From the NCBI GenBank assembly GCA_016937155.1, contig JAFGWM010000040.1, forward strand, positions 149,267 through 213,266: 64,000 nucleotides of DNA. Direction: 5' to 3'. How positions within the stretch are numbered: position 1 is the stretch's first letter; the number at the start of each line of letters is the position of its first letter. Position numbers and translations under genes: made by a program. This document shows, piece after piece, positions 873 to 49,636 of the stretch. Source of the DNA: Deltaproteobacteria bacterium. GTDB lineage: Bacteria > Myxococcota_A > Polyangia > HGW-17. The notes below the pieces were generated by a model, which saw only the letters and a program-made list of their open reading frames with translations, was not told where the DNA came from and did no database searches.

Positions 873-1100
873 AATAAACCTCCAGGTAAAAAACTTTCAG
901 GGAGATATACCGCAAGAAACATGCCATCAACACGATGAAGAAACTTCATAATAAAAGCACCGAATATCTTTGAGATATATCATTCCATACTGAAGTTTAG
1001 TGCATTTCAGATATTTTCCAATGGTAAATTATGAACAAAATGTCACACTGTCTGTAATTTTTCTGTACTTAGAAATTCACATGGGTTAAATCAGCAGATC

Positions 1101-9894: not shown

Positions 9895-10117
9895 AACGCT
9901 TAAACGTAAAATATTTGTATCCAGATAAGTTGATGATTGTTAAAAAATATTCACATTGTAGTTTAAATCCGAAAAAAGATCGATATTATGGTTGTTTGAA
10001 AATGTTTTAAAAGTGATATAAAAACAGTTGGATAAGAAATATTTTACATCATAATTTAAAATTTACAGAATTGGCATTTTACTTGCGGTTTAGGGCAGCA
10101 GTTGTTTGGAGGTTATC

Positions 10118-10969
10118 ATGAAAAAATTATTTTTATTAACAGCAGCATTCTCAGTAATTACATTTCTCAATATATCAACAGCAAATTCACAGGTTCCATG
10201 TGGTGGAGGAATAATTGGAATAGGTCCTATAGGAATAGGCGTCATTGTTGACTGTCCCCCACCCCCACCCCCACCGAGGGTTGTTGTTGTAAAAAGACCA
10301 GCGGTTATTCGCTATGCTGTTTCCAGAAGGGTTGTGGAAGAAGATTCCTGCGACGAGAGTTCTTCATGTCAGAGAAGATCTGCACCTTTGCCCCCACCAC
10401 CTGCTTCAATTCCTGCTGCACCTGCAAATCTTGGTGTGACTGAAGAGATGCCAAGGCTATCACTGGGAGCATTTATGGATAGTTCATCATATGAAGATGG
10501 TGGATTAATGGGTGGTGGTGTGAATCTGAAATACATGCTCAGTGATAACTTTGGTTTTGAATTGAGTACAAGTATTCTTCAGAGTTGCACAAACTGTAAT
10601 GAGTATGCATCCAGAACTGATGCAAGAGTTGGTTTAAGTGCTCTGTACTATCTTGGTAATCCAAGACCCATCGGGTTCAATGTTTATCTCAAGGGTGGAT
10701 TTGTAGTGAATAGCATAACATTTACCGACGACAGGAACGGATCAAGTGAATCTGTTGAGCAGACAAATCTTGAAGTTGGTGGTGGCCTGGAGTATAGACT
10801 TACCAGAAATCTTTCTCTGAATATAGAAGCAACTGGTATGATTGCATCTGAAACTGATGATTCAATAGGTTATGGACCAATTCCTGAAGCTATATCAACA
10901 GGAATTCCCTCATCTGATGTTAATTCCGGAGCTTTCAATGTAAGAGGTGGAGTAAATATTCATTTCTAG
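10118..10969 (+). CDS. outer-membrane beta-barrel protein (OmpA/OmpW-like barrel) with proline-rich N-terminal segment
   Basis: signal peptide MKKLFLLTAAFSVITFLNISTANS; PPPPPPP stretch; alternating amphipathic strands; C-terminal aromatic ...GGVNIHF. Confidence 0.6.
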   Translation: MKKLFLLTAAFSVITFLNISTANSQVPCGGGIIGIGPIGIGVIVDCPPPPPPPRVVVVKRPAVIRYAVSRRVVEEDSCDESSSCQRRSAPLPPPPASIPAAPANLGVTEEMPRLSLGAFMDSSSYEDGGLMGGGVNLKYMLSDNFGFELSTSILQSCTNCNEYASRTDARVGLSALYYLGNPRPIGFNVYLKGGFVVNSITFTDDRNGSSESVEQTNLEVGGGLEYRLTRNLSLNIEATGMIASETDDSIGYGPIPEAISTGIPSSDVNSGAFNVRGGVNIHF

Positions 10970-17745: not shown

Positions 17746-18819
17746 TCAGTACCCAATAAACCAGAGGGTGTATCCGAAAAGGAGAGCGGTAAACAGATTT
17801 ATCAATTTTACCATTATGAAATCTTTTCTTGAGTGTGCCAGAAGAGGAATGGCTCCATGACCATCCTGAGAAATGGATGAAGCAAGAAGAATACTGAAAG
17901 GAATCATTCCATTTGCAAACATTGTCACAAAAATCAGATGTGGCCCGGATTCGGGAATCAATCCTATTAATGCTGCCACCAGCATAATAAGAGCCGGATT
18001 GCCGGTTATCGTGGAATCAAGTCTATTGTGTAGAAGAATACTGATTACAACAAATGCTCCAAACGTCCAGAGAAAGATTTTTGGTGCGTGTTTTAAAATA
18101 AGATGTTCCCACAGGTGTTCTCTGATAAAATGTTCTTCGGCCATGGAAATTATAACGAAGGCCAGAGCAGGAACTACTGTGAAAATAGTACTTTGTATGC
18201 TCGGCGTCTCAGCAATGGATTTCCAGAGAAAATAAGATGATATAGCTGCGAGAGATGCCAGAATTATTAACAAGCGGATGTCTCCTGATTTTAAATTTGG
18301 AATAATTCTGGAGATTTTAAATTTTTTTTCCACAGTAGTCTGATGAATTTCAAAGTTATCTTCACACGGACAATCAGAAAATCTGTTTCCCATTACAAGG
18401 TCAGTGACAACGCCTGTGATGATACCAATAAGAAATAAAATGCCAGTGAGTAAAACTGCTTTTTCAGGAAACATTGCGAACATTACAAATGCTTCATCTC
18501 CGCTTGTGGCAATTGTTGCAGCAACAACCGCGCCCACTTTAAATATTTTATGTGAGTAGAGAGAAACAACTGCGAAAGTACCAAAGCATCCCGGAGTTGC
18601 ACCAAGTAGCGAACCGATAATGTGCTGTCCGAGGAGATATCTTTTAAGGGATGTCTGCCATTTTCCCATGGATGCCACATTAAGAAAATCAATAAAAAGC
18701 ATCATGGAAAGTACAAAAATACTAATTGCAAGTGCATGTACGAAAGAGTGTATAAAAGGATGAATCAAATTGTGAGACAAAAAACCCCCTTTCCGGGATT
18801 TTAGGTAATACCGATTCAT
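17746..18819 (-). CDS. polytopic integral membrane protein, internally duplicated transporter-like fold, unknown substrate
   Basis: 357 aa, about 10 predicted TM helices; paired motifs GATPGCFG...TSGDEAF and LIPESGPH...SQDGHG plus a DCPCED loop. Confidence 0.5.
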   Translation of the reverse strand: MNRYYLKSRKGGFLSHNLIHPFIHSFVHALAISIFVLSMMLFIDFLNVASMGKWQTSLKRYLLGQHIIGSLLGATPGCFGTFAVVSLYSHKIFKVGAVVAATIATSGDEAFVMFAMFPEKAVLLTGILFLIGIITGVVTDLVMGNRFSDCPCEDNFEIHQTTVEKKFKISRIIPNLKSGDIRLLIILASLAAISSYFLWKSIAETPSIQSTIFTVVPALAFVIISMAEEHFIREHLWEHLILKHAPKIFLWTFGAFVVISILLHNRLDSTITGNPALIMLVAALIGLIPESGPHLIFVTMFANGMIPFSILLASSISQDGHGAIPLLAHSRKDFIMVKLINLFTALLFGYTLWFIGY

Positions 18820-18928: not shown

Positions 18929-18983
18929 TTGACAAATTGTCACAGTATAACTCCTTGATTAATATCATGTTGACAAATTGTCA
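18929..18983. promoter_or_regulatory. two copies of perfect palindrome TTGACAAATTGTCA, 41 bp apart, upstream of the secretion operon
   Basis: direct reading at 18929..18942 and 18970..18983; each is TGACAA-A-TTGTCA; about 170 bp upstream of the gspC-like start; TTGACA also matches a -35 hexamer. Confidence 0.5.
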
Positions 18984-19151
18984 TGGTTATTTCCGATGGA
19001 GATTCATTTTTACAACGAAATAAAAATCGAAAGTAATGTGTATAGTATTGATATAACAGGCAAAAAACTTTTTTTAGTTACTGGAGAATTTCTTTTGATT
19101 TGGATCAGTTTTTGCTTAATATGGCGTCAGTTCTGACCTGAAGGTTTATAT

Positions 19152-20057
19152 ATGGAGAATTTATCTAAATATTATCCGTTGATTATCAATCTTGCCATGA
19201 TTGCGCTTGTTAATTCAGGAGCAGGAATAGCTGCTGCTGATATTACAGCATATTTTTTGTACAGTGCTCCTGTTTATGAGATGGCAGCAAAAGGCATTTC
19301 AAAAAAATCATCCAAAAGGAAGAATGAAAAACGACTGTCCGGGGATATAAGAGCAATTTTGAAAAGAAATATGTTTTGTAGTACCTGTGAGCCCATTTCT
19401 CTTGATGACATTAAGGATGCCGGTGGAAAACAGCCTGAAAAGAAAGTTGACTCCCTCGAAGGTGCAACACTCCTGAGTACAATGCTTGCGGAAAGAGAGA
19501 TTTTTTCTCTTGCTGCCATTGCAGTGGAGAAACCTGAAGTGCGTACTATTCTTGTTGGTATTAACGATGAAGTGGGTGGAGCAAAAGTGATTATGATTGA
19601 GGATAAAAAGGTTACATTCCTTAAGGATGGTAAGGAAAAAATTCTTACCCTTACCGGAGAACCTAAGACAATTGCTTCTAAATCTTCAACCCCTGGAAAA
19701 CCGAAAACCAAGGATGAAGAATGGGCAAGCAAGATAAAGCAGATTGGACCAAATAAATACGAAGTGGAAAGATCTGTCGTAATGGATTTAATGCAGACAA
19801 TGGCTCAAAGAGGTCGTGGTGCAATGGTAATTCCTGATCCTAAAGGTGGATTCAGAGTTTCCTTTATACGATCCTACAGTATTTTCTATAAACTGGGTAT
19901 TAGATCAGGAGATGTGATCAAATCGGTAAATAATATCCAGCTTGATTCTTTTGATAAAGCTCTATTGATGTATACAAAACTGAAAAATGCAAATCACCTG
20001 ACTATTTCAATTAATCGTCGGGGTAAAACCGAAAATATGGATTTTTCAATCAGGTAA
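19152..20057 (+). CDS. gspC: type II secretion system protein C-like (N-terminal TM anchor, C-terminal PDZ-like domain)
   Basis: 301 aa; N-terminal hydrophobic helix; C-terminal GIRSGDVIKSVNNIQLDSFDKAL resembles a PDZ domain; directly precedes the secretin gene. Confidence 0.55.
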   Translation: MENLSKYYPLIINLAMIALVNSGAGIAAADITAYFLYSAPVYEMAAKGISKKSSKRKNEKRLSGDIRAILKRNMFCSTCEPISLDDIKDAGGKQPEKKVDSLEGATLLSTMLAEREIFSLAAIAVEKPEVRTILVGINDEVGGAKVIMIEDKKVTFLKDGKEKILTLTGEPKTIASKSSTPGKPKTKDEEWASKIKQIGPNKYEVERSVVMDLMQTMAQRGRGAMVIPDPKGGFRVSFIRSYSIFYKLGIRSGDVIKSVNNIQLDSFDKALLMYTKLKNANHLTISINRRGKTENMDFSIR

Positions 20058-20072
20058 CGAGAGGGATATACC

Positions 20073-22661
20073 TTGAGACTACTTAATTATTTAACAGTGT
20101 TTGTGGTAATACTTTCAACGTCGACCGGTTCTCTGGCCCAGCGGAAAGCCAGAGATTATAAGTACCGGAGAAACAACAGGGGGAATCTTGGCAAGCCTCA
20201 GGGTGGTGGTGGCGGTTCGGCCACTGCTGTTGGAAGTGCAAAGGATGATCCTAATTTCAATGAATGCAAGAACGTTCCCCAGTACCGGAGAATGAAGGTT
20301 TCACTTAAACCTGAAGCTAAACTTACTGAGTTGATAGGATGGATCAGTTCTCTCACATGCCGTAAATTTATTCTTACTAAAAACATCAGAGCTCAGGAAG
20401 TTACTATTTATTCACCCACCAAGGTAACTCCCAGAGAGTCGTACAGGGCATTTCTAAGTGCTCTGGAGGCAATGGGTCTTACAGTTCAGAAAAGCGGTTC
20501 ATATTATAAAATAATGGAATCAGAAAAAGCAAAGGGTCTTGTTCATCCTCTGGTTACTCCAGGTGGATATGTAGGAACAGGTGAAACTCTGGTTACCGCA
20601 ATGCTTAGAGTCAGATATGCAGAGCTTCAGGATGTGGCAGATGCTCTTGGTAAGTTTAAAAGTAAATATGGTGAAATCACTATTTATAAACCTACAAACC
20701 TTATTATTATCACAGATCTTGCAGATAGTATTACCAGGTTGCAGAGAATACTGAGACATCTTGATGTGGAAGGTGTCAACAATGAGAAAATCTGGGTTGT
20801 GAAGATTAAAAATGGTGATGCAGAGGAAATAGCAAATAAACTGAAAGAAGTTTTTGATACAGCAGGTGGCTCCTCAACATCAAAAACTGCAAAACCGACG
20901 AATTCCTACAGTAACAGAAGAAGTTCCAGAAGAAAACTGTACAAACCCGCAACTAGTACCCCTGCCTCAAAAGTCAATTCAGTGGGGAGTAACTCTTCAA
21001 TATCTAAAATAATTGCAGACGAAAGAACTAATTCACTTATTATTAAAGCTGATGACAGTTCTTATCTGGAAATACTTTCTCTTCTTGGAAAACTGGATGT
21101 AAAACTACCAGGTGGAGAAGAAAAAATTCATATTATTTATCTTGAAAATGCAGATGCAGAAGAAATGGCAGGCCTGTTAGGTTCACTTACTGGTTCTGGT
21201 GGCGGAAGTTCTTATAATTCCAGGAGAAATTCTACCTCAAGACGAGGTTCAACTTCCCGGCGTGGTTCAAGCAGTTCATACAGAGGATACAGTGGCTACG
21301 GATCATCATACGGACGTTCAAACAGTCAGCAGATCCAGGGAATTTTCAAGGGTCCCGTTCAGGTACAGCCTGACAGAAGCACAAACTCTCTGGTAATTAT
21401 GGCTTCGTCAAAAGATTTTCTATCCCTGAGAAGGATTATCAAGGAACTTGATAAACCCAGAAGACAGGTTTTCGTTGAAGTTACAATTATGGAAGTTAGT
21501 CTGGATAAAACCAGAAATCTCGGGTTATCTTTCCATGGTGGAAATACAATAGGAACCGGCGATGAACAATCCATACTTTTCGGAGGATCAATTTCAAATC
21601 AGGCAACCAACTCGATTATTATGAATCCATTGTCTCTTATGGGTTTTGCTGTTGGTTTGAGGGGACCTGAAATTGCGGACGCAGAGTCTCTTCTTGGAAT
21701 TCCAGGTCTTACATTTCCTTCATTTGGTGTGTTCTTTCAGGCACTTCAGACTAATAATGCAGTAAATGTTATTTCATCCCCGCATCTTCTTACCACAAAT
21801 AACGAAGAGGCTGAAATTACAGTGGGGGAGAATGTTCCTTTTCAGGCCGGAATTTCATCAATTTCCTCTCTGGCAAGTTCCTATGGTTCTTCAAGTTCTC
21901 TTGTGATGCCCAGTGTAGCCCCTATTCAGAGACAGGATGTTGCACTGAAGTTAAAAATAGTTCCCCATGTCAATAAGAGTAATTTTGTTCGCATGGAAGT
22001 TGAGCAGGAAATAAATGAGGTTAAATCCATCGATCAGATAGTTGGTCCGACTACATCCAAGAGAAAAGCTTCCACAGTTGTTGTGGTAAAGGATCAGCAG
22101 ACAGTTGTTATTGGTGGTCTGATGACGGAGAAATTCAAAAGTGCTGTTACCAAGGTACCACTTTTGGGGGATATTCCGCTTTTCGGGTATCTTTTTAAAT
22201 CCACAGTTAAAAATGTTGAAAAAACAAATCTTCTTATCTTCATAACTCCTTATATAATAAGAGATGAAAGTGATCTCAGAAGAATTTTTCAGGAAAAGAT
22301 AAAACAAAGAAAAGAGTTTATTGAAAAATTTGCAGCGTTTAAGGATCACGACATAGATCGAACCATAAATTACAAGCATAAATGCGGGATGTTTGAGGAG
22401 ATAAATCGTGAAGCCAAAAAAATGGAGGATGAGATCGAATTAAAGCGTAAAGCTATGGAGGAATACAAGGAAATAGATAATTCCGGTCCGGTTATTGTAA
22501 AAAATGCTGATGTTCTTAAGTTGCAGAAGGCACTTAAAAAAGTCAGAGATGATGATGAAAAGGAAACTGAAAAATCCGGAAAATTGGATAAAAAGGACAA
22601 CAAGTCAGAGTTATCCTCAAAGAATTCTAAAAAACCAGTAAAGACGGGAGAAAAAAAATAG
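20073..22661 (+). CDS. gspD: type II secretion system secretin GspD
   Basis: 862 aa; signal peptide; N-domains; secretin C-domain (VVIGGLMTE...VPLLGDIPLFGYLFK...LLIFITPYII); unusual RS/G-rich insert and long K/E-rich C-terminal tail. Confidence 0.9.
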   Translation: MRLLNYLTVFVVILSTSTGSLAQRKARDYKYRRNNRGNLGKPQGGGGGSATAVGSAKDDPNFNECKNVPQYRRMKVSLKPEAKLTELIGWISSLTCRKFILTKNIRAQEVTIYSPTKVTPRESYRAFLSALEAMGLTVQKSGSYYKIMESEKAKGLVHPLVTPGGYVGTGETLVTAMLRVRYAELQDVADALGKFKSKYGEITIYKPTNLIIITDLADSITRLQRILRHLDVEGVNNEKIWVVKIKNGDAEEIANKLKEVFDTAGGSSTSKTAKPTNSYSNRRSSRRKLYKPATSTPASKVNSVGSNSSISKIIADERTNSLIIKADDSSYLEILSLLGKLDVKLPGGEEKIHIIYLENADAEEMAGLLGSLTGSGGGSSYNSRRNSTSRRGSTSRRGSSSSYRGYSGYGSSYGRSNSQQIQGIFKGPVQVQPDRSTNSLVIMASSKDFLSLRRIIKELDKPRRQVFVEVTIMEVSLDKTRNLGLSFHGGNTIGTGDEQSILFGGSISNQATNSIIMNPLSLMGFAVGLRGPEIADAESLLGIPGLTFPSFGVFFQALQTNNAVNVISSPHLLTTNNEEAEITVGENVPFQAGISSISSLASSYGSSSSLVMPSVAPIQRQDVALKLKIVPHVNKSNFVRMEVEQEINEVKSIDQIVGPTTSKRKASTVVVVKDQQTVVIGGLMTEKFKSAVTKVPLLGDIPLFGYLFKSTVKNVEKTNLLIFITPYIIRDESDLRRIFQEKIKQRKEFIEKFAAFKDHDIDRTINYKHKCGMFEEINREAKKMEDEIELKRKAMEEYKEIDNSGPVIVKNADVLKLQKALKKVRDDDEKETEKSGKLDKKDNKSELSSKNSKKPVKTGEKK

Positions 22662-24410
22662 ATGTCCACTCATCGTCTACTTGGTGAAATTCTGATTAAA
22701 AATATGGGGATAAGTGCGACTGATATTCATAATGCTCTTGAAAAACAGGTGGAAGAAGAATCCAGAATTGGAGAAATACTTGTTAAATCAAAGATTCTTA
22801 TGGAAAAAGATGTTCTGAAAGCACTTGCTATCCAGCAGCATATTTTATTCCGTGAAATGGATCCTAAACCTGAAGATGTGGAACTTGATCTTATTGAGCA
22901 GATACCACTGAATTATGCAAAACAAAACAGAATTACACCCCTCTGGCACAATGATGACGGAACAGTTGAAATTGCATTAAGTGATCCGGGTGTTTACTGG
23001 GCAATCGATGATGTGGCTTCAAAACTGCGGAAAAAATTAAGTATATCACTAATGGAATCTCAAAGGATTCTGGAACTTATCAACAAAGCTTATACAAGAA
23101 GAGCCACAAGTGTTGATCTTGGTGATGAAAACGAAGATTTTGCAGATGGTGATGTTGAGGATCTTGCTGATAATATAGATATTAAAGATGAAGCACCTAT
23201 CATCAGATGGGTAAATGCTATCATATACAATGCTGCAAAGGAGCGGGCTAGTGATATTCATATAGAGCCCGGTGACAGAGAAGTTGTAGTAAGGTACAGA
23301 ATTGATGGTGTGTTGTATGAAACAAAACATGCCAATAAAAATTATCTGAGTGCGATTATTGCGAGAGTTAAAATTATGTCTGGTCTTGATATTGCGGAAA
23401 AGCGCCTTCCTCAGGATGGTAGAATTCGCAGAAAAATAGCGGGCAGGGATATTGATTTTCGTGTTGCAACTATTCCAACAGCAAGAGGTGAACGTATAAC
23501 AATCCGACTGCTTGATCAAAGCAGTATTCTTCTCGGTCTTGGGGATATCGGTTTTGCTCCAAGAGAACTTGATCTTATGGAAGATCTTATTGAGAGACCC
23601 CATGGAATTATTCTTGTTACCGGGCCTACCGGTAGTGGTAAAACTACAACTCTTTACGCATCTCTGAATAAAATAAACTCACCGGAACTTAATATTCTAA
23701 CAATTGAAGATCCCGTGGAATATCAACTTGAGGGAATTTCTCAGGTTCAGGTTAATCCAAAAATTCATCTGACTTTTGCAGCTGGATTGAGATCTTTTTT
23801 ACGTCATGATCCTGATGTTATTATGGTTGGTGAGATTCGTGATCTTGAAACTGCAGAAATTGCTATTCAGGCATCACTGACAGGTCATCTTGTTTTGAGT
23901 ACTGTTCATACAAATGACAGCGCTGGGGCACTTACGAGGCTTGTGGACATGGGAGTTGAGCCGTTTCTTGTTGCATCCTCTCTAAATGGAATTCTTGCCC
24001 AGAGACTGGTAAGAAGACTCTGTCCGGTTTGTAAGGAAGAATATGAGCCAACTCCTGAGGAAATTGATGATGTTGGACTTAACCCTGATGAATTTTTCAG
24101 TGGGATGATAAAGGGTTATCCGGTAAAAGCTGGAACAAGAGTTCCTGGCCCGGGTAAACTGTTCAGAGCCAAGGGTTGTCCACAATGTCTTAATACAGGA
24201 TACCAGGGACGAACAGGGATATATGAGCTCCTCATGATGGATGATGACATTCGTGCCATGTCAATGAAGAAGATAGATGCGAACCAGATTAAAAAACTGG
24301 GTGTTTCCAAAGGTCTGAAAACATTGCGTCAGGATGGGGCTTACAAAGCAATAAGCGGGATTACAAGTCTCAGTGAAGTGATGCTTGTAACCGCGGAAGA
24401 TATAGCTTAG
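22662..24410 (+). CDS. gspE: type II secretion ATPase GspE
   Basis: Walker A GPTGSGKTTT, Asp box, His box, C-terminal tetracysteine CPVC...CPQC; 582 aa. Confidence 0.95.
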   Translation: MSTHRLLGEILIKNMGISATDIHNALEKQVEEESRIGEILVKSKILMEKDVLKALAIQQHILFREMDPKPEDVELDLIEQIPLNYAKQNRITPLWHNDDGTVEIALSDPGVYWAIDDVASKLRKKLSISLMESQRILELINKAYTRRATSVDLGDENEDFADGDVEDLADNIDIKDEAPIIRWVNAIIYNAAKERASDIHIEPGDREVVVRYRIDGVLYETKHANKNYLSAIIARVKIMSGLDIAEKRLPQDGRIRRKIAGRDIDFRVATIPTARGERITIRLLDQSSILLGLGDIGFAPRELDLMEDLIERPHGIILVTGPTGSGKTTTLYASLNKINSPELNILTIEDPVEYQLEGISQVQVNPKIHLTFAAGLRSFLRHDPDVIMVGEIRDLETAEIAIQASLTGHLVLSTVHTNDSAGALTRLVDMGVEPFLVASSLNGILAQRLVRRLCPVCKEEYEPTPEEIDDVGLNPDEFFSGMIKGYPVKAGTRVPGPGKLFRAKGCPQCLNTGYQGRTGIYELLMMDDDIRAMSMKKIDANQIKKLGVSKGLKTLRQDGAYKAISGITSLSEVMLVTAEDIA

Positions 24411-24418
24411 GTGTAAAG

Positions 24419-25651
24419 ATGCCTGTTTTTCAGTATAAATGCGTGGATACCGCCGGAAAACCCGTATCGGGATCCAAGGAAGCTGATTCTGAAAAGGCCC
24501 TCAGGGCTTCACTCAGGAAGGAAGGTCTTTTTTTACAGGAATATAAAAAATCCACCGAAAAAGGGAAAGGTCTCCAGAGAGAAATCGAGATTGGATTTCT
24601 CAATACTGTAAGTGTTGCCGATATCGCATTGATCACAAGGCAGCTTGCCACACTTCTTCGTGCCAGCGTTCCACTTACTGAGTCACTGGCTGCAATAAGT
24701 GAACAGCTTGCGAATGATAAAAAGCGCAGGAAACTGTCGAATATTATTTCTGAGGTAAAAAGAAGTGTAAATGAAGGTCTTTCTTTAGCTGAGTCATTAA
24801 GTAAACATCCTAAAGAATTTAATCAATTCTACGTAAGTATGGTGAGAAGTGGCGAGGCTGCAGGAAATCTGGATGAAGTTTTACGGACTCTTAGTGAATT
24901 TCTGGAAAAACAGAAAAAACTGAAGGATAAAATTCGCAGTGCTATGACGTATCCAATGGTTATGGGTGTGGTTACTGTAATTATTATCGGTATTTTAATG
25001 ACAAGTGTTGTTCCTAATGTGGTGAGTGTTTTTGAGGATACAGATCAGACACTGCCTATTTATACAAAAATTCTGATTGGAACCAGTGAATTTGTGAGTT
25101 CCTGGTGGCTTATGCTGATAGTTGCCTTTAGTCTTTATGTGTATATCTTCAGAAAATGGAAAGCATCAGTTTCCGGTCGGAGGAATTGGGATTCCTTTGT
25201 TTTAAAGGTTCCGGTGGTTGGTGAACTGGTGAGAAAAGTGGCTATTTCAAGGTTTACAGCCACCATGGGAACTATGCTCACCAGTGGAGTTCCCATTCTT
25301 AAGGCTTTGGAAATAGTTAAGGCTGTAATGGGTAATGTGATTCTTCAGGAAGTTGTGGATGATGTTGAATCTGCAATAAGAGAAGGTAAGGGTATAGGTA
25401 AAACTCTTGAACTTTCAGGTGAATTTCCTCCCCTTGTAACACATATGATTGCTATTGGTGAGAAAAGTGGACAGCTTGAAGAAATGTTGAAGAATGTAGC
25501 GATGGCTTATGAAGATGAGGTTGAAACTGCCATCACCAGGCTCACGAGTGTACTTGAGCCGTTAATGATTGTCACAATGGGTAGTGTGGTAGCATTTGTT
25601 GTATTTTCAATACTTATGCCAATCATGCAGATGAATAATATAGGACTTTAG
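24419..25651 (+). CDS. gspF: type II secretion inner-membrane platform protein GspF
   Basis: 410 aa; duplicated GspF/PilC domain with three TM helices. Confidence 0.9.
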   Translation: MPVFQYKCVDTAGKPVSGSKEADSEKALRASLRKEGLFLQEYKKSTEKGKGLQREIEIGFLNTVSVADIALITRQLATLLRASVPLTESLAAISEQLANDKKRRKLSNIISEVKRSVNEGLSLAESLSKHPKEFNQFYVSMVRSGEAAGNLDEVLRTLSEFLEKQKKLKDKIRSAMTYPMVMGVVTVIIIGILMTSVVPNVVSVFEDTDQTLPIYTKILIGTSEFVSSWWLMLIVAFSLYVYIFRKWKASVSGRRNWDSFVLKVPVVGELVRKVAISRFTATMGTMLTSGVPILKALEIVKAVMGNVILQEVVDDVESAIREGKGIGKTLELSGEFPPLVTHMIAIGEKSGQLEEMLKNVAMAYEDEVETAITRLTSVLEPLMIVTMGSVVAFVVFSILMPIMQMNNIGL

Positions 25652-25661: not shown

Positions 25662-26084
25662 ATGAAACGTGAAAATGTTACAGCAAGAGCATTAAGAAAT
25701 CTGAAATCCCAGAGAGGTATGACCCTGATAGAGATTATGATCGTTATTGTTATTCTCGGTCTTATCATTGGTGCAATTACCTTTGGTGTGATGCCCAGAT
25801 TTAAAAAGGCAAAGAAAAAGACTACTCAACTCAAATTGAATAATATTGCAAGTATCCTTACAGAGAGTGCCGAAGAACCAGAGCACAGCGGAAAAGAAGG
25901 AAACCAGATCCTTGAAGCTCTGGTTACTGATGGAACAATTAAAAAGTCTGATCTTAAGGATGCCTGGGGACAGGAAGTCAAGGCTGAAAAAGCTGGAGAA
26001 GGTTTTTGTGTCAGAAGTGCCGGACCTGACAAGAGTTTTAACACAGCTGATGATGTTCTCAGCAATGACTGTAATGAGAACTGA
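25662..26084 (+). CDS. gspG: major pseudopilin GspG (type IV pilin-like N-terminus)
   Basis: prepilin signature ...QRG/MTLIEIMIVIVILGLIIGAI with Glu at +5; 140 aa; unusually long 19-aa leader. Confidence 0.85.
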   Translation: MKRENVTARALRNLKSQRGMTLIEIMIVIVILGLIIGAITFGVMPRFKKAKKKTTQLKLNNIASILTESAEEPEHSGKEGNQILEALVTDGTIKKSDLKDAWGQEVKAEKAGEGFCVRSAGPDKSFNTADDVLSNDCNEN

Positions 26085-26089
26085 TTAAA

Positions 26090-26830
26090 ATGAAGTATTT
26101 CCCCTGTAAATACCCTGATAGGGAAATAAATAAGGGGGAAGAGGGATTTACCCTCATTGAGATACTGATAGTTATTGTTATTATGGGATTAATAATAGGA
26201 AGCATTGCTTTTTATTTTAAAGTTATCCCTAAAATGAGAATGAAAGAAAGCTCCAGGAAGTTTGCCAATGCTATCCGGTTCACTTCCAATCATGCGCGTA
26301 CCACTAGATTGTTTCACCGGTTGATTCTGGATCTGGATGCAGAAAATCCCTCTCTTGAACTTGAGATAGTTCCTTCCGGGGAAACTGTTCCTGATCTTGA
26401 TCCCGAAATAACGGAAGATGAAGAGGATTCGATTACCTTCGAAGAGTGGCCGGAATTCGATCCTGCATCCCCCATAGGACCCACTGGAACAGATGATAAT
26501 TCTAAGCCTTTCAGACCAAGGCTTGGGGGGTGGAAAAAGCCTGATAAATCTTTTATGAAACCAGTTAAGCTTGAGGGAATACATATCAGGAGAGTATCGT
26601 TTCCCTGTATAGGAAAGGAATATGACAGCGGGAAGGTGGCATACTATTTTTTCCCGAATGGACAGAATTTTGGTGGTGTAATTGAACTTACAAGTGCTTC
26701 AGGTGCCAGAATGAAAATGCTGGTTCACGCTGCAACTGGCCTTGTTCAATTTGTGGATGCTGATTCGGATAACAGAAATCTCTGTTTTGATGATGATGGA
26801 AACAACGTTGAGAAACTGGATAATAACTGA
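26090..26830 (+). CDS. minor pseudopilin (GspH-like)
   Basis: prepilin N-terminus ...EEG/FTLIEILIVIVIMGLIIGSIAF; 246 aa. Confidence 0.7.
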   Translation: MKYFPCKYPDREINKGEEGFTLIEILIVIVIMGLIIGSIAFYFKVIPKMRMKESSRKFANAIRFTSNHARTTRLFHRLILDLDAENPSLELEIVPSGETVPDLDPEITEDEEDSITFEEWPEFDPASPIGPTGTDDNSKPFRPRLGGWKKPDKSFMKPVKLEGIHIRRVSFPCIGKEYDSGKVAYYFFPNGQNFGGVIELTSASGARMKMLVHAATGLVQFVDADSDNRNLCFDDDGNNVEKLDNN

Positions 26831-26831
26831 C

Positions 26832-27572
26832 ATGAGAACTACCATGAGCACACTAAAAAGAGGATTTACACTTCTGGAAGTTGTGTTGTCACTGGCTATC
26901 TTAAGTATGTCTCTCCTGTGGATTCTCAAAGGTCAGAGTGATTCGGTTTCAAGGAGTGTAAGAAGCCGGCTTCTTACTCAGGGTATGCATCTGGCTCAGG
27001 CTAAACTTCTGGAAACAGAATTTAACCTCAGAAGAGATGGTTTTGGTACATTCGAGGATGAAAATTGCGGTGATTTTGATCCTTCTGATTATGAGGGTTC
27101 CGAGAGATTCAGATACTGCGTGATTATTGAGAAGATTGAATTGCCGGATATGGCTATGCTACAGGAAAAAATTATGGGTGGTATGGGTACCTCTGATGAA
27201 TCCGCTGAGGGAACAAATACTTCGCCACTTACAGATCTTATTAGTCAGTTTCTCCCAGGGGCAGGTTCATCTTCGATGGATGAAGGTCTGGGAAAAATGG
27301 CTTCCTCTTTTATGGGACAGGCCATGAGTATGATTCAGAGTGTTTTGGAGGCTGCAGTAAGACGTGTTACTGTCAGGGTGATGTGGAGAGTAGCAAAAAA
27401 AGAAAGATATTTTGAGCTGGTGTCATACCTTACTGATCTTGATGAGCTGGATAGATCACTCATCAGTCCTTCAAACACTGGGACTTCAGGTACAACAGGA
27501 ACTTCTTCCACAGGAACCTCTTCCACAACCAGAACGACAGGGAGTTCTTCATCGGGGAGTACAACAAGATGA
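26832..27572 (+). CDS. minor pseudopilin (GspI-like) with Ser/Thr-rich C-terminal tail
   Basis: ORF 26742..27572; likely start MRTTMSTLKRG/FTLLEVVLSLAIL (or MSTLKRG at about 26844); C-terminal TGTSGTTGTSSTGTSSTTRTTGSSSSGSTTR. Confidence 0.65.
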   Translation: MRTTMSTLKRGFTLLEVVLSLAILSMSLLWILKGQSDSVSRSVRSRLLTQGMHLAQAKLLETEFNLRRDGFGTFEDENCGDFDPSDYEGSERFRYCVIIEKIELPDMAMLQEKIMGGMGTSDESAEGTNTSPLTDLISQFLPGAGSSSMDEGLGKMASSFMGQAMSMIQSVLEAAVRRVTVRVMWRVAKKERYFELVSYLTDLDELDRSLISPSNTGTSGTTGTSSTGTSSTTRTTGSSSSGSTTR

Positions 27573-28381
27573 GGTACCTGATTCTTCAACCGCATACATG
27601 TTCAAAGAAAGGCATGACCCTTATAGAGGTGCTTGTTTCACTGGTTATTATTTCAATAATGACAGCAAGTGTGTATGGAACAATTTATACATCCAGACAG
27701 GTACAAAAGGCAAATGAACAGAAATCCAAACAGTATCAGTTGATTAGAGGTTTTCTGTCAATGCTGGAAGATGATTTGAGTATGTCCTATCTGTCACTTG
27801 GGGAAGACACAAGTGCTCCTGAAAAGAGAACTTTTTTCAGGGCAAACTACGATGGTGCCGGCTTAAATCTGGTTTTTTCAACATTTTCACATATCAGAAG
27901 CAGTCGAAAAAATCATGAAGCTGATAATGCCATCGTGCAATATGCAATCATTGACGATCCCGAGATGCCATCAAGATATGCCATAAAGCGCAGAGAAACC
28001 CACAGGCTGGAACAGAAGTATTTCGAAGAAATTCCTGGGGAAAGCTGGCTTATTCTACCAAGAGTAGACTCGTTAAGAATGGAATTTTATGACAAAACCC
28101 GTGATGAATGGCTCGAGGAATGGGATACAACAACCATAGACGGACAGATCAATCGTCTTCCAAATCAGATAAAAATTCATCTGGTGGTTGAAGATGGAAG
28201 GGAGAATCTTATCCACTTCACAACATTTGTTCAGCCAAAACTAATTGATTCAATAAACCTTACACCTTCAGGAAATTCAAGCAGCAGTTCGAGTAGTACC
28301 AGCTCTTCAACGTCAGGAAGTTCATCCACCGGAAGAACAACTACCGGTTCTACAACTTCCAGCACCAGGGTGACAAGATGA
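27569..28381 (+). CDS. minor pseudopilin (GspJ-like) with Ser/Thr-rich C-terminal tail
   Basis: prepilin N-terminus ...KKG/MTLIEVLVSLVIISIM; 270 aa; C-terminal SSSSSSTSSSTSGSSSTGRTTTGSTTSSTRVTR. Confidence 0.65.
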   Translation: MRYLILQPHTCSKKGMTLIEVLVSLVIISIMTASVYGTIYTSRQVQKANEQKSKQYQLIRGFLSMLEDDLSMSYLSLGEDTSAPEKRTFFRANYDGAGLNLVFSTFSHIRSSRKNHEADNAIVQYAIIDDPEMPSRYAIKRRETHRLEQKYFEEIPGESWLILPRVDSLRMEFYDKTRDEWLEEWDTTTIDGQINRLPNQIKIHLVVEDGRENLIHFTTFVQPKLIDSINLTPSGNSSSSSSSTSSSTSGSSSTGRTTTGSTTSSTRVTR

Positions 28382-29604
28382 ACAAATCTTCTTCACGTTC
28401 CCAAAGAGGATATGCGCTGCTTATAGTTACCATGGCAATTGCTATTATTGGTGTTCTTGTACAAATGTTTATTCTTTCTTCACAGGCTGAACTCAGATCC
28501 GTCCGGGCAGAGGGAGATCGGATAAAAGCAAGATATATCAGTTATAGCGTACTGGAAGTAACGAAACTATTTCTTAAGGTTCAGGAAAAATTTCTTGATA
28601 ACAACGCAATGCTGTCACAAATGGGTCTTGATATGGGACAGTTTCTTCCGATGATACTTCCGCTTTTTTTTGGGGATGTGGATATGGTTGGCGCAATGAT
28701 TGGCACCGATGTTGTTGGTCTTGGTATGAAACCCGGTCAGGGAAGTGGTGGAATGATTTCTATGGATGCTGAAGATGGAAAAATCAATATAAACTGTGCA
28801 ATTTCAGATGCTAATATTCAGCAATTAAATCTTAATCTCACAGCACTTTTTTCCAGCAGGCGTTATGATGAACTCTTTGGAAGACTTCTTTCAGATTCCG
28901 ATTCGCTGGATAGAGTTCAGCAGGTGGGGGCCTTTATCGACTTCATTGATCTGGATCAGGGAGGTTATGCCGGGGGTGATGAGGATGGATACTATATGGG
29001 ACTGTCTGAACCCTATGTTTCAAAAAATAATTTGCTTGATTCCAATGAAGAAATCAGACTTATAAGGGGTGTTGATGACGTTTTCTGGACGAATTTTGGG
29101 AGTTCATTGACAGTATATGGTTCATGTAATCTGAATCTATGTGCTGTTGATTCAAATAACTGGCAACTGGTTGCAGGAATAATTGTTGCCAGTGCAAAGG
29201 ATCCCAATCATAAGGTTATAAATGATCCAGTTTTACTGAAAATGCTGGCGACTACTGTTGCACCACAAATTCCAGGGATTTGCAAAGACACAAGTACTTT
29301 TATACAGGCAGTGGCTAATCCTGGTGTTGCATCAAATGTAATGGCTGCGGCTCTTGGAATAAGTGCAGATGAAATGAGTGATCTTGGTAATGATGGGGTA
29401 AATGATGCAGAGGTTCAGGGGGTTGAACTTGATCAGAGTAAGCTTAGTAAAATAGTTACAAGTGCCTCCAAGCGTTTTTATCGTCTGAAGGTTTATGGTG
29501 TATCCGGAAAATCAAAACATATGGTTAATGCAGTTTGGGATCAAAAGCTGGTTTCAACTTCTTCCGGAAAAACCGGTGGTTTTGTTTACTGGAGGGAAGA
29601 ATAA
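28378..29604 (+). CDS. gspK: type II secretion minor pseudopilin GspK-like
   Basis: 408 aa; N-terminal RGYALLIVTMAIAIIGVL helix lacking Glu+5 as in GspK; operon position after the I/J-like genes. Confidence 0.65.
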   Translation: MNKSSSRSQRGYALLIVTMAIAIIGVLVQMFILSSQAELRSVRAEGDRIKARYISYSVLEVTKLFLKVQEKFLDNNAMLSQMGLDMGQFLPMILPLFFGDVDMVGAMIGTDVVGLGMKPGQGSGGMISMDAEDGKININCAISDANIQQLNLNLTALFSSRRYDELFGRLLSDSDSLDRVQQVGAFIDFIDLDQGGYAGGDEDGYYMGLSEPYVSKNNLLDSNEEIRLIRGVDDVFWTNFGSSLTVYGSCNLNLCAVDSNNWQLVAGIIVASAKDPNHKVINDPVLLKMLATTVAPQIPGICKDTSTFIQAVANPGVASNVMAAALGISADEMSDLGNDGVNDAEVQGVELDQSKLSKIVTSASKRFYRLKVYGVSGKSKHMVNAVWDQKLVSTSSGKTGGFVYWREE

Positions 29605-29651: not shown

Positions 29652-31331
29652 ATGAGTGGCAGATATTTTGTCATTGATATTGGAAGCAGAAACATAAAAG
29701 GAGCTGTCTGTGATGTCAGAAAAAAGGAATTTACTGTAATCGACACCATCGCAGTCAAAAAACCTCTTTTAAAAATAGAATACAGTTCTGCGATTAAAAA
29801 TATCCTTGAAAAACTCGGTGGAAAATCTTCCCAGAATATAATTATTTCCATAGGAGATGGAGTATATCTGAGAAATATGACATTTCCATTCAGTGAAAGA
29901 TCTAAAATAGATCCTCTTGTTCTATATGAATTTGGAGATCAACTTCCTGAAGAAATAGATGATCTTACCACTACCTGGACAATTAATCCCAAGGGGCAGA
30001 GTTCTGAAAGTATTGTTTTGTGCGCAGCTACTTCCTCAGACAATGTTGTTCAGATGATAAACAATATAAATACACTAGGAGGGGATGTATGCCGATTTGT
30101 GATGAGTGGTGCAAGAGCAATGACATTCGGTATTCCTGGGGATAATTATGCCGCGGTTATTGATTTTGGTGCCGGTTTAACAGAAATATCCATTCTGCAC
30201 GGAGATACGGTTGTGATGTCCAGAATTATTTACTCAGGTGTGGAGGATATAATTGATTCTTTGGCTTCATTTACCGGTCAGGATGTGGATGTAATAAGAA
30301 ACTGGATTATTACTTCCGGTGGTGTGAGTATGGAACATCCTGATGAAGAAGAATTTGAAAAAATAATCAGAAATGAACTGGTAAAACAGACTGAAGAATG
30401 GAGAAAATTTATTGGCATATCTGAAAAGGAACTTGGTTTAACAATAGGTGATATAGTTCTTACCGGGGGAGGAAGTGCACTACAGGGACTTTTACCGTTT
30501 GTATCAAATGTTACCGGAAAAAAAGTTACTCATGCTTCGATACCCAATGTGATTATGCCTCAGGAGTGGATTTCAACTATTGCCCTGGTTTCCACAGCAA
30601 CAAAATACAGTAGTGATATGTGTGATTTCAGAAGAGGTGGTTTGGCCAGAGGGGCTTCTTTTTCACTGGTGAAGGACAGAGCTTTAATGGTGATGATGTC
30701 TTTGATGTTGTTTTTTGGATCTCTGGTTGTTTCAGGGGTGGTAAGCCTTAATAATCTTGAAAGACAGGAAAAGGATCTTCTTGGTTTGAGTGCTCTGTTA
30801 TCCAGAGAAGTTCTCGGAAAAAAATTCATGGATCCTGGTTCAATAAATCGAAGTATCAAGAAAAAATTTAAGAAAGGTAAAAAGGGAATAGATAAGTCCG
30901 AGTCTCCGATTCCCAGAATGAGCGCATATACGGTGCTTGGGCTGATATCGAGTAATCTGCCACCAGCTAAACCTTTGAAAAAGGATGGAGAGAAGGCAAC
31001 GGAAGAAAAGCCGGATGAAAAAGAAAAGACTTCTCCTCCTTCAGATAAAAAATCTGATGAAAAAGCAAAAAAACCATCAGATTCAAAACCCGAAGTTGTT
31101 GATGAAAAATTAAAAGAAATCGCTCTGGATATCACCAAAATACATATTAAAACCGGAAAAATTTCAATAACCGGAACTGTGGAAAGAGCCCAGGACGTTG
31201 ATGAAATATCAAAAGGTCTTAAAAGAATTGAATGTTTTCAGGAAATCAGACAGGGAAAAATGAAAACAGTTGGTTCCGGGGAAAATGAAAAAAGGGAATT
31301 TACCCTTGATATAACAATGAACTGTTTATAG
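29652..31331 (+). CDS. gspL: type II secretion protein GspL-like (cytoplasmic actin-like domain, single TM, periplasmic domain)
   Basis: N-terminus YFVIDIGSRNIKGAVCD (PilM/GspL actin-like fold); TM ALMVMMSLMLFFGSLVVSGVV; K/E-rich linker; 559 aa. Confidence 0.7.
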   Translation: MSGRYFVIDIGSRNIKGAVCDVRKKEFTVIDTIAVKKPLLKIEYSSAIKNILEKLGGKSSQNIIISIGDGVYLRNMTFPFSERSKIDPLVLYEFGDQLPEEIDDLTTTWTINPKGQSSESIVLCAATSSDNVVQMINNINTLGGDVCRFVMSGARAMTFGIPGDNYAAVIDFGAGLTEISILHGDTVVMSRIIYSGVEDIIDSLASFTGQDVDVIRNWIITSGGVSMEHPDEEEFEKIIRNELVKQTEEWRKFIGISEKELGLTIGDIVLTGGGSALQGLLPFVSNVTGKKVTHASIPNVIMPQEWISTIALVSTATKYSSDMCDFRRGGLARGASFSLVKDRALMVMMSLMLFFGSLVVSGVVSLNNLERQEKDLLGLSALLSREVLGKKFMDPGSINRSIKKKFKKGKKGIDKSESPIPRMSAYTVLGLISSNLPPAKPLKKDGEKATEEKPDEKEKTSPPSDKKSDEKAKKPSDSKPEVVDEKLKEIALDITKIHIKTGKISITGTVERAQDVDEISKGLKRIECFQEIRQGKMKTVGSGENEKREFTLDITMNCL

Positions 31332-31343
31332 GAAGTCTGACTG

Positions 31344-31967
31344 ATGAAGATTTTTAGTAAAATTGAAAATGGTTTTGATAATCTGAGCTCAAGAGAACAG
31401 AAAATGGTTGTGGCCACCATTATAAGTTCTATGTTTATGATTTGTGGGTTATTTATTTTTCTAATCAGTGATTCTTTTTCTGAACGGGAACAGAGAATAG
31501 ATGGACTCAAGGGAGCTATAAAAAATCTGTACAAAAACAGAGGAAAAGTGGCAAATGTCAAGGATATTCTCGCTTCCTACGAAATGAAAGCAATAAAAAA
31601 ACCTCCCATGCTTCAGGGTTTTATTGATACTGCCGCACAGGATTTTGAACTAAAGGGATTGAATTATAATCCTAAAAAACCAAAGGATCTTGGAGAACAC
31701 AAGGAATATCATGAAGAGAGCGTAGAAGTTAAACTTCATGATGTGGACCTTAAAAAATTTTCACAACTCATGGATAGAGTTGAAAACAACCAGTATCTTA
31801 TTATGGTTACTGAGTTGAAATCAACTTCAAGAAGAGGACATCACGACAGACTTGATTCCTCCATTATTGTTTCTTCATATTACAAAAGAAATGCAAAAGA
31901 GTTGAAAGAGTTAGCCACTGATAAAAAAGGTAAAAATGAAAAACGCAAGAAGAAGGGAGAAAAATAA
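31344..31967 (+). CDS. gspM: type II secretion protein GspM-like
   Basis: 207 aa bitopic protein, N-terminal TM (VVATIISSMFMICGLFIFLI); follows the gspL-like gene. Confidence 0.6.
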   Translation: MKIFSKIENGFDNLSSREQKMVVATIISSMFMICGLFIFLISDSFSEREQRIDGLKGAIKNLYKNRGKVANVKDILASYEMKAIKKPPMLQGFIDTAAQDFELKGLNYNPKKPKDLGEHKEYHEESVEVKLHDVDLKKFSQLMDRVENNQYLIMVTELKSTSRRGHHDRLDSSIIVSSYYKRNAKELKELATDKKGKNEKRKKKGEK

Positions 31968-33145
31968 TGAGAATAAGAACTCTGCTTATCAAAGGTCTTA
32001 AATATTTTTCTGTCTCCACCTTTGGAAGTATTATCTTTTTTCTTTCGTTCTGGATGTTTATGGATTGGTCGCTTATCAAGGATAGAATTGAAAAGGAATT
32101 GGGAAAAGCAACTGGATTTACAGTTAAAATAGGTGATTTCAGTCTGGGTTTTGGAAGTGTTTCTCTGACGGATATAGTGATGACAGGTGACAGTGACAAG
32201 GAAGGGGAGAAACCTACAAAATTTAAAATTTCCACTCTTAATCTGAAATCATCCCTTCTAAGTCTTGCAAGAGGAGAGGAGAATCTTTCCTTTTATATGG
32301 ATGCAATGGGTGGAAGTGTCGAAGGTTCTTATTATAATAGTGAAAATAAAAAGAAATTTTCTCTTGAAATAAAGGATATCAAGGTCAGTGCAATTCCATT
32401 AATGAAGAATTTTATGAGTCTTCCTATTGTTGGAAGAATTACCGGAAAAGGAGAAATGACAATTCCTGGAAAGGGTTTCAGGAAAGCCGATGGAAAACTG
32501 GAGATAGCATGTAATAAATGTATTATCGGAGATGGCAAAACCAAGGTTAAGGCAACTTTTTTAGCCCCTCCTAAAAACAAAGGTAGTCAGAAGTGGGCTC
32601 AGGAAGGTGTTACTCTTCCTCCGATGAATCTTGGTAAATTCGGTGGAAATATTGATATTAAAAATGGTGTGGCTGGCTTCAACGATTTCGTAGCAAAAAG
32701 TTCCGATGGAGAGGCAGAACTTGCAGGAAATATAAAGTTGAGGGATCCTTTAAAAACTTCTATTTCTGACCTTTATTTTAAATTTAAGTTTTCAGATGAA
32801 GCAAAAAAGAAAAATGAAAGTCTTGAGGCTATTGAATTTTCGATGGCTCGTCAGGGAAAAAGACCTGATGGTTTTTATGGCCTGGCTATAACAGGTGCTA
32901 TTTCTAAAATTAAATTCAAGCAGCGCAGACGTGGTATTGTTGATAACAAAAAGAAGCATGCAAACGGCGGAAAGCTTAAGAAACCCCATCGACCGAGGGA
33001 TAGAACTCCCCGAAATCCCAGAAAACCGGGTTTAAACAAAAAATTTGGGGGAAAAATAAAACCGGGACTTTCAAGAAAAATTATGGCACCAAAATTTAAC
33101 AGAGCAGGGAAAATGCCAGGAGCTGCCCCGGCAAAAAAAGACTGA
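31967..33145 (+). CDS. GspN-like bitopic protein with polybasic Pro-rich C-terminal tail
   Basis: 392 aa; N-terminal TM; last gene of the secretion operon; tail KPHRPRDRTPRNPRKPGLNKKFGGKIKPG. Confidence 0.5.
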   Translation: MRIRTLLIKGLKYFSVSTFGSIIFFLSFWMFMDWSLIKDRIEKELGKATGFTVKIGDFSLGFGSVSLTDIVMTGDSDKEGEKPTKFKISTLNLKSSLLSLARGEENLSFYMDAMGGSVEGSYYNSENKKKFSLEIKDIKVSAIPLMKNFMSLPIVGRITGKGEMTIPGKGFRKADGKLEIACNKCIIGDGKTKVKATFLAPPKNKGSQKWAQEGVTLPPMNLGKFGGNIDIKNGVAGFNDFVAKSSDGEAELAGNIKLRDPLKTSISDLYFKFKFSDEAKKKNESLEAIEFSMARQGKRPDGFYGLAITGAISKIKFKQRRRGIVDNKKKHANGGKLKKPHRPRDRTPRNPRKPGLNKKFGGKIKPGLSRKIMAPKFNRAGKMPGAAPAKKD

Positions 33146-37241: not shown

Positions 37242-37277
37242 ATTATATAGTGTTACACTACAAGGAGAAAACACAAA

Positions 37278-38564: not shown

Positions 38565-38586
38565 TGGAATATAAGGAGCATACCAA

Positions 38587-48842: not shown

Positions 48843-49320
48843 ACAAAGATCTTCAATTGAATCAGCAGTCTTAAAATGTGAAAAAGACAAGGGGTATATT
48901 TTATCCAGAGTTGGGGAAATCTTAAATGAGATAAATGAGTGCGCTGAAAAAGTATCTTTAATTAAATCTGAAATCACTAGTCTTGAAAGCAAATATGAGT
49001 GTATTTCGTTAAAACTGGTAAACAGTATTATAAAAAAGTCTTCAGAACTTCTACTCTATAAAAACAATATAAGAGTACTTAAAGATAAAATTACGGTTAA
49101 ATTTAAAGAGCTTGAAGAATATATTAAAAAACAGAATCATCTTGAATCTGAAAAAGCAAATCTTTTTGTGGAGATGGAAAGGGTATCTGAAAAGATAAAA
49201 CTTCTTGAGGAAAAACAGAGAAATCTAGGAATAATTGAACACAGGAAACTGGAAGAAAAACAACTCGATGAAGTGTCTGAAATGGTTATACAATTCAAAA
49301 ATAAAATCAGTCAAGATTAA
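48835..49320 (+). CDS. hypothetical coiled-coil protein
   Basis: 161 aa, heptad-rich (LEEYIKKQNHLESEKANLFVEMERVSEKIKLLEEKQRNL). Confidence 0.4.
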   Translation: MNKQRSSIESAVLKCEKDKGYILSRVGEILNEINECAEKVSLIKSEITSLESKYECISLKLVNSIIKKSSELLLYKNNIRVLKDKITVKFKELEEYIKKQNHLESEKANLFVEMERVSEKIKLLEEKQRNLGIIEHRKLEEKQLDEVSEMVIQFKNKISQD

Positions 49321-49636
49321 TAAGAATATCTTCAAAGTTCAGCGAGAGTTCTACCATTGAATCAAATATATTTGCCTGAGAGTGATTTTCATCAAGAAGA
49401 TCGTAAATAATTGCTCTTAATGCAAGATTCAGAGATCTCATTCTTTCAATTTTAGATATCCAGTTATTGTGAATCAAATCAAGGAATAAACGGTCAACTC
49501 CCTGTTTTACTGCCTCTATCTCCCATCGTTCTATTCTTGATGTGGGTCTTATTGTTTCTGTTATTGAATTGAGTTCTCTCAGAATGAAGAGTAACTGATT
49601 TCTGTTGTCTTCGCGTGTTTTAACCAGAGTAACCAT
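49307..49636 (-). CDS. hypothetical small protein
   Basis: 109-aa ORF downstream of and co-directional with 49714..50087. Confidence 0.4.
   Translation of the reverse strand: MVTLVKTREDNRNQLLFILRELNSITETIRPTSRIERWEIEAVKQGVDRLFLDLIHNNWISKIERMRSLNLALRAIIYDLLDENHSQANIFDSMVELSLNFEDILINLD

Follow-up and report, generated by a model that had tools for sequence, protein, structure and literature searches.

A duplicated palindrome upstream of a type II secretion operon as a putative two-site enhancer of a sigma-54 promoter in an uncultured Myxococcota-like bacterium

What reads the duplicated palindrome that lies upstream of the type II secretion (gsp) operon in an uncultured 'Deltaproteobacteria bacterium', and which gene does it serve? 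The original prediction, made from the DNA letters of this locus, had two identical inverted repeats bound cooperatively by a dimeric regulator that would overlap sigma-70 promoter elements. The source MAG has a GC content of ~38% and its nearest relatives are annotated as Myxococcota; we analysed a 64-kb stretch of its DNA (the window), together with related loci from other genomes and metagenomes. Based on these comparisons we consider it likely that the palindromes are a two-site enhancer for an NtrC-family activator of a sigma-54 promoter located before the gsp operon.

The paired palindrome and its surroundings

The 14-mer TTGACAAATTGTCA occurs exactly twice, at 18929–18942 and 18970–18983, and nowhere else in the 64-kb window. 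The strict palindrome is 13 bp (TGACAA-A-TTGTCA, at 18930–18942 and 18971–18983), to which the 14-mer adds a leading base. The two copies are spaced by 41 bp start-to-start, with 27 nt between the 14-mers, and the two palindromes together lie 169–223 bp from the gspC ATG (19152); both copies, their spacing and their distances from the gspC-like start were thus re-found as originally described. The core GACAAAWTGTC has no third copy in the 64 kb, only two other matches to it have a single mismatch, and matches to the palindrome with two or three mismatches are no more frequent within the window than expected by chance; because the relaxed counts stay at chance level, the signal is the exact duplication itself. 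Calculated from the base composition of the window, the probability of a second identical 14-mer less than 100 bp away is ~2e-6, in keeping with the earlier view that the duplication is unlikely to be accidental. Weightier than this p-value is the conservation of both sites in relatives, where position, spacing and dyad are kept, as this is independent proof of non-randomness. An Rfam search of the region gave no match at E ≤ 1.

The palindromes had been placed in non-coding DNA upstream of the gsp operon, which is correct, but the setting needs one amendment: the intergenic region is divergent, with a permease gene on its left. The start of this gene is ~150 bp left of the nearest palindrome, and ~150–200 bp spans both sites. 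The features of the region are as follows:

17746–18780, minus strand: permease gene of the ArsP_2 type (annotated 'arsenic efflux' / 'putative manganese transporter'), the divergent left neighbour
18930–18942: distal site, putative upstream activating sequence, TGACAAATTGTCA, a perfect 13-bp palindrome centred at about -191 from the predicted transcription start
18971–18983: proximal site, putative upstream activating sequence, the identical palindrome 41 bp 3' of the distal one, centred at about -150
18984–19100, plus strand: AT-rich spacer from the sites to the promoter, 117 nt, 73.5% AT (window, 62%), with five A/T tracts
19101–19115, plus strand: predicted sigma-54 promoter TGGATCAGTTTTTGC, with its -24 GG at 19102–19103 and its -12 GC at 19114–19115
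19152–20057, plus strand: gspC, first gene of the operon (NCBIfam NF041515 GspC_delta, 190.9 bits; cut-off 150)
20073–22661, plus strand: gspD, above the NCBIfam equivalog cut-off (497.5 vs 351)
22662–24410, plus strand: gspE, above the NCBIfam equivalog cut-off (663.3 vs 630)
24419–25651, plus strand: gspF, above the NCBIfam equivalog cut-off (464.6 vs 424)
25662–28381, plus strand: pseudopilin genes, with matches below the NCBIfam cut-off
28378–29604, plus strand: gspK, with a match below the NCBIfam cut-off

The identity of the type II secretion operon is given by GspC, GspD, GspE and GspF, all of which reach curated equivalog scores, and the operon probably continues to ~33145, across unassigned ORFs at 29652–33145. 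At its N-terminus the GspE protein (22662–24410) matches the MshEN-type motif for c-di-GMP binding (NF053729, 39.1 bits, cut-off 38; also Pfam MshEN), a hint that a second messenger controls the secretion ATPase. Further along the window (35325–40452) we also found genes for an aconitase and then both ATP-citrate lyase subunits (with the domains Citrate_synth_N/Citrate_bind, followed by CoA_binding/Ligase_CoA/Citrate_synt), a combination usually associated with the reductive TCA cycle and surprising for a Myxococcota-like MAG.

Conserved sites and a sigma-54-like promoter before gspC

A syntenic relative (L002, GCA_018820545.1), whose permease has 60% amino-acid identity to that of the window, has at the equivalent place TTGACAAAATGTCA, 27 nt and TGGACAAAATGTCC, the spacing again being 41 bp. 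The distal site in this genome and in L204 is TGACAAAATGTCA, and in the proximal site of L002, GGACAAAATGTCC, the two halves have changed symmetrically, T having become G in the left one and A having become C in the right one, so that the dyad is preserved. In L206 the two sites are TGACAAAATGTCA and TGACAATTTGTCA, 41 bp apart, and in L205 TGCCAAAATGGCA occurs twice, also 41 bp apart; the same spacing is found in L006. Aligned pairwise with L002, the intergenic region of the window is conserved at just three places, the two palindromes and a block containing TGG-N9-TGC before gspC, and L205 and L206 have this same pattern, with the remainder of the intergenic region diverged. Across the gspC loci examined the spacing is 40–42 bp in 10 of 11, the exception being L137 (51 bp).

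That the sites would be conserved upstream of gsp operons in relatives was therefore borne out, as the pair precedes gspC across several lineages whatever its upstream neighbour. The kept dyad and the 40–42 bp spacing (four helical turns) across these lineages likewise favour a dimeric regulator at paired sites, and comparison of these sequences supports the view that the palindromes are bound by a dimeric regulator of the gsp operon which recognises their dyad, and that they would act as a pair.

The conserved block next to gspC resembles a sigma-54 promoter. The element TGGATCAGTTTTTGC is located 37 nt before the gspC ATG and 119 nt downstream of the proximal palindrome, and its GG and GC fall exactly where TGGCAC-N5-TTGC puts them, though its -24 region (TGGATC) deviates from the TGGCAC consensus. 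The predicted transcription start is at ~19127 (~12 nt past the -12 GC), giving a leader of 25 nt. L002/L204, L004, L009, L205 and L206 all share the motif nGGATCGGTTTTTGC, the element itself being TGGATCGGTTTTTGC in L002, GGGATCGGTTTTTGC in both L004 and L205, CGGATCGGTTTTTGC in L206 and AGGATCGGTTCTTGC in L009. On its own, TGG-N8-TTGC shows no enrichment across the window (11 matches vs 7.9 expected), and no sigma-54-like element facing the permease was found in the region. A reading of the conserved block as a sigma-70 promoter (TTGATT-N16-TAATAT) was considered and dropped, the sigma-54 consensus being the better fit.

A further block, GAATTTCTTTTGATT (19086–19100), abuts the -24 TGG on its 5' side. 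L002/L204, L004 and L205 all retain it, L206 only in part, and it might be bound by a second protein or serve to extend the promoter contacts. The spacer as a whole contains a sole IHF-like match with one mismatch (19041–19053, minus strand). An IHF site or an intrinsic bend between enhancer and promoter is frequent but not obligatory in sigma-54 systems, and the composition of the spacer together with this match is compatible with looping, which is not to say proof of it.

In addition, the window contains four further TGGCA-N6-TTGC elements:

926–912, minus strand: element preceding the ORF at 96–872
10072–10086, plus strand: element preceding an OmpA/OprF-like beta-barrel gene (10118–10969)
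49690–49676, minus strand: element preceding a 109-aa ORF (49307–49636)
60494–60480, minus strand: element preceding a 220-aa ORF (59644–60306)

As all four are intergenic and correctly oriented, 20–170 bp before an ORF, they suggest that this organism uses sigma-54, and seemingly on a wide scale. The palindrome had also been proposed as a means of defining a regulon. A motif search within the window found no further exact copy, and one near-site of interest with a single mismatch, TGACATTTTGTTCA (1033–1046). A strong sigma-54-like promoter, TGGCATGTTTCTTGC (912–926, minus strand), follows ~105 bp downstream of this near-copy and precedes the ORF at 96–872 (258 aa, with a DUF7107 match); we estimated the probability of such an arrangement by chance at roughly 0.04. 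This gene, which perhaps codes for a secreted protein, may be controlled by the same activator as well.

To place the arrangement more widely we ran a pattern scan of 185,579 species genomes for GACAAAWTGTC-N18..42-GACAAAWTGTC, with totals that are lower bounds, which identified at least 120 stretches against an estimated ~7–15 by chance. Among the matches listed, the gaps peak at 20–21 and 29–31 nt, i.e., at three and four helical turns. The flanking ORFs of the listed matches were clustered and representatives were searched against Pfam; among these matches, seven loci have the palindrome pair 116–225 bp upstream of gspC (T2SSC and PDZ domains), their lineages being Oligoflexia, Bdellovibrionota, Bacteriovoracaceae, Persicimonas and a deltaproteobacterial MAG. 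In six of the seven, TGGCAC/TGGCAT/TGGTAC-N5-TTGC lies between the pair and gspC (the canonical elements TGGCACTGACTTTGC, TGGCACGGAACTTGC, TGGCATCGGACTTGC, TGGCATTACTCTTGC, TGGCATCGACCTTGC and TGGTACGAATATTGC). The form TGGCAC/TGGCAT-N5-TTGC is present at the equivalent place in L126, L132, L134, L137, L141 and L189, and L140 has the variant sigma-54 element AGGCACGAAAGTTGC. In gspC loci the proximal site and the -24 GG are a variable 54–129 nt apart.

We also retrieved 80 metagenome loci with an alignment of 22 GspC homologs. About 45 of the 80 have TGG(C/T)CCCGG(T/C)GTTGC immediately 5' of gspC, and these same loci have the palindrome TGCCAAATTGGCA ~63 nt upstream of the promoter element, with the same 5-3-5 geometry and the changes A to C and T to G. 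Of the 70 gspC-homolog loci for which 250 bp or more of upstream sequence was available, 59 have a TG[AC]CA-N3-TG[GT]CA palindrome no further than 400 bp upstream; the strict TGG-N9-TGC was also present in 51 of these 59, most of the others having nGG variants. The same palindrome had no match in 193 kb of downstream sequence from those loci.

A linked activator gene, the proposed mechanism and its alternatives

In four of the loci (L090, L132 from Persicimonas, L140 and L189) the gene that ends just upstream of the sites encodes a protein with Response_reg, Sigma54_activat and HTH_8 domains. A tblastn search with the L132 activator identified an ortholog (~57–61% identity) that ends just upstream of gspC in ~45 of the 80 metagenome loci, these ~45 being from soil. 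No activator gene was detected in the 64-kb window, either by tblastn with the L132 protein or by Pfam searches of ten large ORFs (411–691 aa), and none is adjacent to gspC in the closest relatives (L002, L004–L009 and L204–L206). The linked activators score 424–452 bits against the NtrC model TIGR01818 (cut-off 558.6), and an attempt to name them was given up, as they are below every NCBIfam equivalog cut-off (AtoC, ZraR, PEP-CTERM PrsR and others); scores below the NtrC, AtoC and ZraR cut-offs indicate that the protein is not an NtrC ortholog. In three of the loci (L090 1538–3328, L132 4050–5756 and L189 1–1594), all Bradymonadales-like, a gene for an FHA-GAF-adenylate/guanylate cyclase is adjacent to the gsp-linked activator gene and divergent from it, and this cyclase may be a signalling input for the activator.

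The C-termini of these proteins vary together with the sites. Activators ending in ...TRTIYRKL occur with TGACA-N3-TGTCA, and those ending in ...TRTIYRRL with TGCCA-N3-TGGCA. The switch between TGACA and TGCCA is symmetric in both half-sites and simultaneous in both sites; the TGCCA group comprises L205, L004, L009 and L010–L083, and the TGACA group the window, L002, L206, L006, L132 and L189. This apparent co-variation of Lys/Arg with A/C, drawn from few independent lineages, is as expected if the recognition helix reads that base pair.

Sigma-54 enhancers consist of dyad activator sites ~80–200 bp upstream of the promoter, usually two or more of them and helically phased. Directly seen at our locus and its counterparts are the conserved, regularly spaced sites, a -24/-12 element that is likewise conserved and, in relatives, an activator gene linked to them; based on these we propose the following mechanism. 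A candidate activator with a receiver domain, an AAA+ sigma-54-interaction domain and a Fis-type HTH, presumably present in this genome along with rpoN, would bind as one dimer per dyad; as the sites are four helical turns apart, both dimers would be on one face of the DNA. The activated protein would oligomerise and loop over the AT-rich spacer of ~119 nt to reach an RNA polymerase-sigma-54 complex at TGGATCAGTTTTTGC, ATP hydrolysis would open the promoter, and gspCDEFG... would be transcribed from ~19127 in a sigma-54-dependent manner. The position of the -24/-12 element 119 nt past the proximal site, with no fitting sigma-70 promoter, argues for an activator's enhancer rather than a promoter-occluding operator.

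The original prediction differed on this last point, as it equated the half-site TTGACA with a sigma-70 -35 hexamer and had the bound regulator overlap the promoter. This part was not supported: by promoter scan and direct reading there is no -10 hexamer 16–18 bp 3' of either TTGACA (TCCTTG and CCGATG are found there), and the leading T of the hexamer is lost in relatives, the second site of L002 having TGGACA and those of L205, L004 and L009 having GTGCCA. As the hexamer varies and the dyad is kept, the conserved unit is the dyad and not a -35-like hexamer. A fuller version, in which the palindromes are operators of a dimeric repressor (e.g., TetR-like) acting on sigma-70 promoters at or between the sites, could draw on weak sigma-70-like matches that use the inner half-sites, TTGTCA-N17-TAATAT (plus strand) and TCAACA-N18-TATACT (minus strand), and on pairs of the palindrome core 4–7 bp before TetR-family genes in four other loci (L100, L174, L197 and L203). 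However, such promoter-like matches are about as numerous as in shuffled sequence (4 found vs 3.3 expected), the sequence between the sites is unconserved and in GC-rich relatives has no -10-like hexamer, no repressor gene flanks the region, and the conserved sigma-54 promoter with its linked activator gene accounts better for the data, so we regard repression of this kind as very unlikely. For annotation, the lesson is that a TTGACA embedded in a palindrome should not be taken as a -35 box.

A second alternative makes the divergent ArsP_2 permease gene the target of the sites, for instance through a metal-responsive regulator, with their position before gspC incidental, or assigns them to both genes. 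The sites are as near to the permease start (18780) as to gspC (~150–200 bp), and the permease-gspC adjacency is common to the window, L002/L204, L205 and L206. Against this, paired palindromes precede gspC in many loci without the permease, which have the activator gene, a conserved gene in divergent orientation or something else in its place; the 288 bp available upstream of the permease ortholog in L003 contain no such site; no sigma-54-like element points toward the permease; and conservation is poor close to the permease start. Since the sites follow gspC where there is no permease, and the L003 permease lacks them, we reject the reading as a metal operator of the permease; on this comparison the ArsP_2 permease is probably not a target of the palindromes, and its control as their main role strikes us as very unlikely, though they may conceivably act in both directions. 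The idea that the two copies arose by accident, or form a short repeat or a structural element (hairpins in DNA or RNA) without regulatory function, for which the chance-level counts of matches with two or three mismatches could be quoted, is negligible in the face of an exact duplicate within 41 bp (p ~2e-6), the empty Rfam search and a stem of 5–6 bp with a loop of 1–3 nt that would be too weak for such an element, and it is effectively refuted by the preservation of position, spacing and dyad symmetry where the flanks of relatives have diverged.

The palindrome in other settings and its relation to known systems

The same palindrome is found in other contexts. The pairs before TetR-family genes mentioned above are TGACAAATTGTCA pairs with a gap of 27–28 nt in other phyla; the core palindrome is evidently used there by an unrelated regulator family, so the family of the bound protein cannot be read from the motif alone. 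The core GACAAAATGTC also occurs in tandem iteron-like arrays with periods of ~13–39 bp (L112, L175, L159, L150, L124, L105 and L155), on contigs of Clostridia, Brocadiaceae, Treponema, Ktedonobacterales and Leptospirales.

A third setting is in Bacteroidota/Ignavibacteria, where, among the matches listed (L086–L198), paired GACAWWWTGTC is found upstream of hsp20 (at least 23 loci) and clpB (at least 14 loci), e.g., L089 3518–3640, L104 5296–5440 and L093 2699–2830; in Flavobacteria the palindrome-bearing clpB is divergent from a BrxC-like gene. The hsp20 and clpB pairs are followed by a sigma-54-like GG-N8-TTG(A/C) element, with 14 nt (12 of 27 loci), 24–25, 34 or 45–46 nt from the end of the proximal core to the GG, distances which indicate that the position shifts in steps of ~10.5 bp. 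A promoter-proximal position of this kind is unusual for an enhancer-binding protein. From their placement, these palindromes are a candidate activator site of a sigma-54 chaperone regulon. Sigma-54-dependent chaperone promoters (motif SM4) have been described in Flavobacterium psychrophilum, where their activators are unknown (PMC9723704). What our loci share with these is the core GACAWWWTGTC in pairs before sigma-54-like clpB/hsp20 promoters in many Bacteroidota; the chaperone sites are promoter-proximal and helically phased, whereas those of the gspC loci are at a variable 54–129 nt. We speculate, while thinking it rather doubtful, that one cross-phylum subfamily of sigma-54 activators reads TGACA-N3-TGTCA and drives gsp in Myxococcota-, Bdellovibrionota- and Oligoflexia-like bacteria and hsp20/clpB in Bacteroidota. 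If so, secretion would be wired to the signal of a chaperone regulon, possibly proteotoxic or envelope stress, and the Bacteroidota version would act from an unusual promoter-proximal, helically phased position.

Our searches of the literature on sigma-54, type II secretion and an activator found only a 2025 survey, in which predicted sigma-54 promoters were enriched upstream of type II secretion COGs, including COG3031 GspC, predominantly in Myxococcia (PMC12316311). That the promoter class serves type II secretion is therefore already predicted, and our locus shares with the survey this class and the target genes, in a related phylum. The survey scored promoters only, and a search of its text found no mention of upstream activating sites; the present lineage is an uncultured, low-GC MAG. 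A paper on the sigma-54 regulome of Desulfovibrio has no type II secretion regulon (PMC4641369). The literature searched appears to contain no description of the palindrome pair and its 41-bp spacing, nor of the activator linked to gspC or the half-site/helix switch. To promoter-only surveys our analysis adds a putative activator site, TG[A/C]CA-N3-TG[T/G]CA, whose 41-bp pairing is conserved, and a candidate family of regulators in which a Lys/Arg position apparently sets the specificity. Together the predicted promoter, two-site enhancer and response-regulator activator would give a concrete control logic for type II secretion in a poorly known, uncultured Myxococcota-like lineage.

The kind of mechanism proposed is textbook, ordinary bacterial control, so its general importance is modest, and one of its closest counterparts is NtrC at glnAp2 of enteric bacteria. 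Common to both are two helically phased dyad sites 100–200 bp upstream of a -24/-12 promoter and a response-regulator-type AAA+ activator with a Fis-type HTH (here a candidate), and the CCA-N3-TGG at the heart of the TGCCAAATTGGCA variant is reminiscent of the NtrC box TGCACCA-N3-TGGTGCA. The systems differ in that the sites here are 13 bp rather than 17 bp, their spacing is 41 bp rather than 32 bp, and the target is a type II secretion operon. PilS/PilR of Pseudomonas, Myxococcus and Geobacter would be similar in another respect, as there too sigma-54 and a response-regulator activator serve a machine of the type IV filament superfamily, and PilR sites contain TGTC repeats. In contrast to PilS/PilR, the predicted target here is the whole gsp operon from gspC onward and not a pilin gene, and the site is a paired 5-3-5 palindrome.
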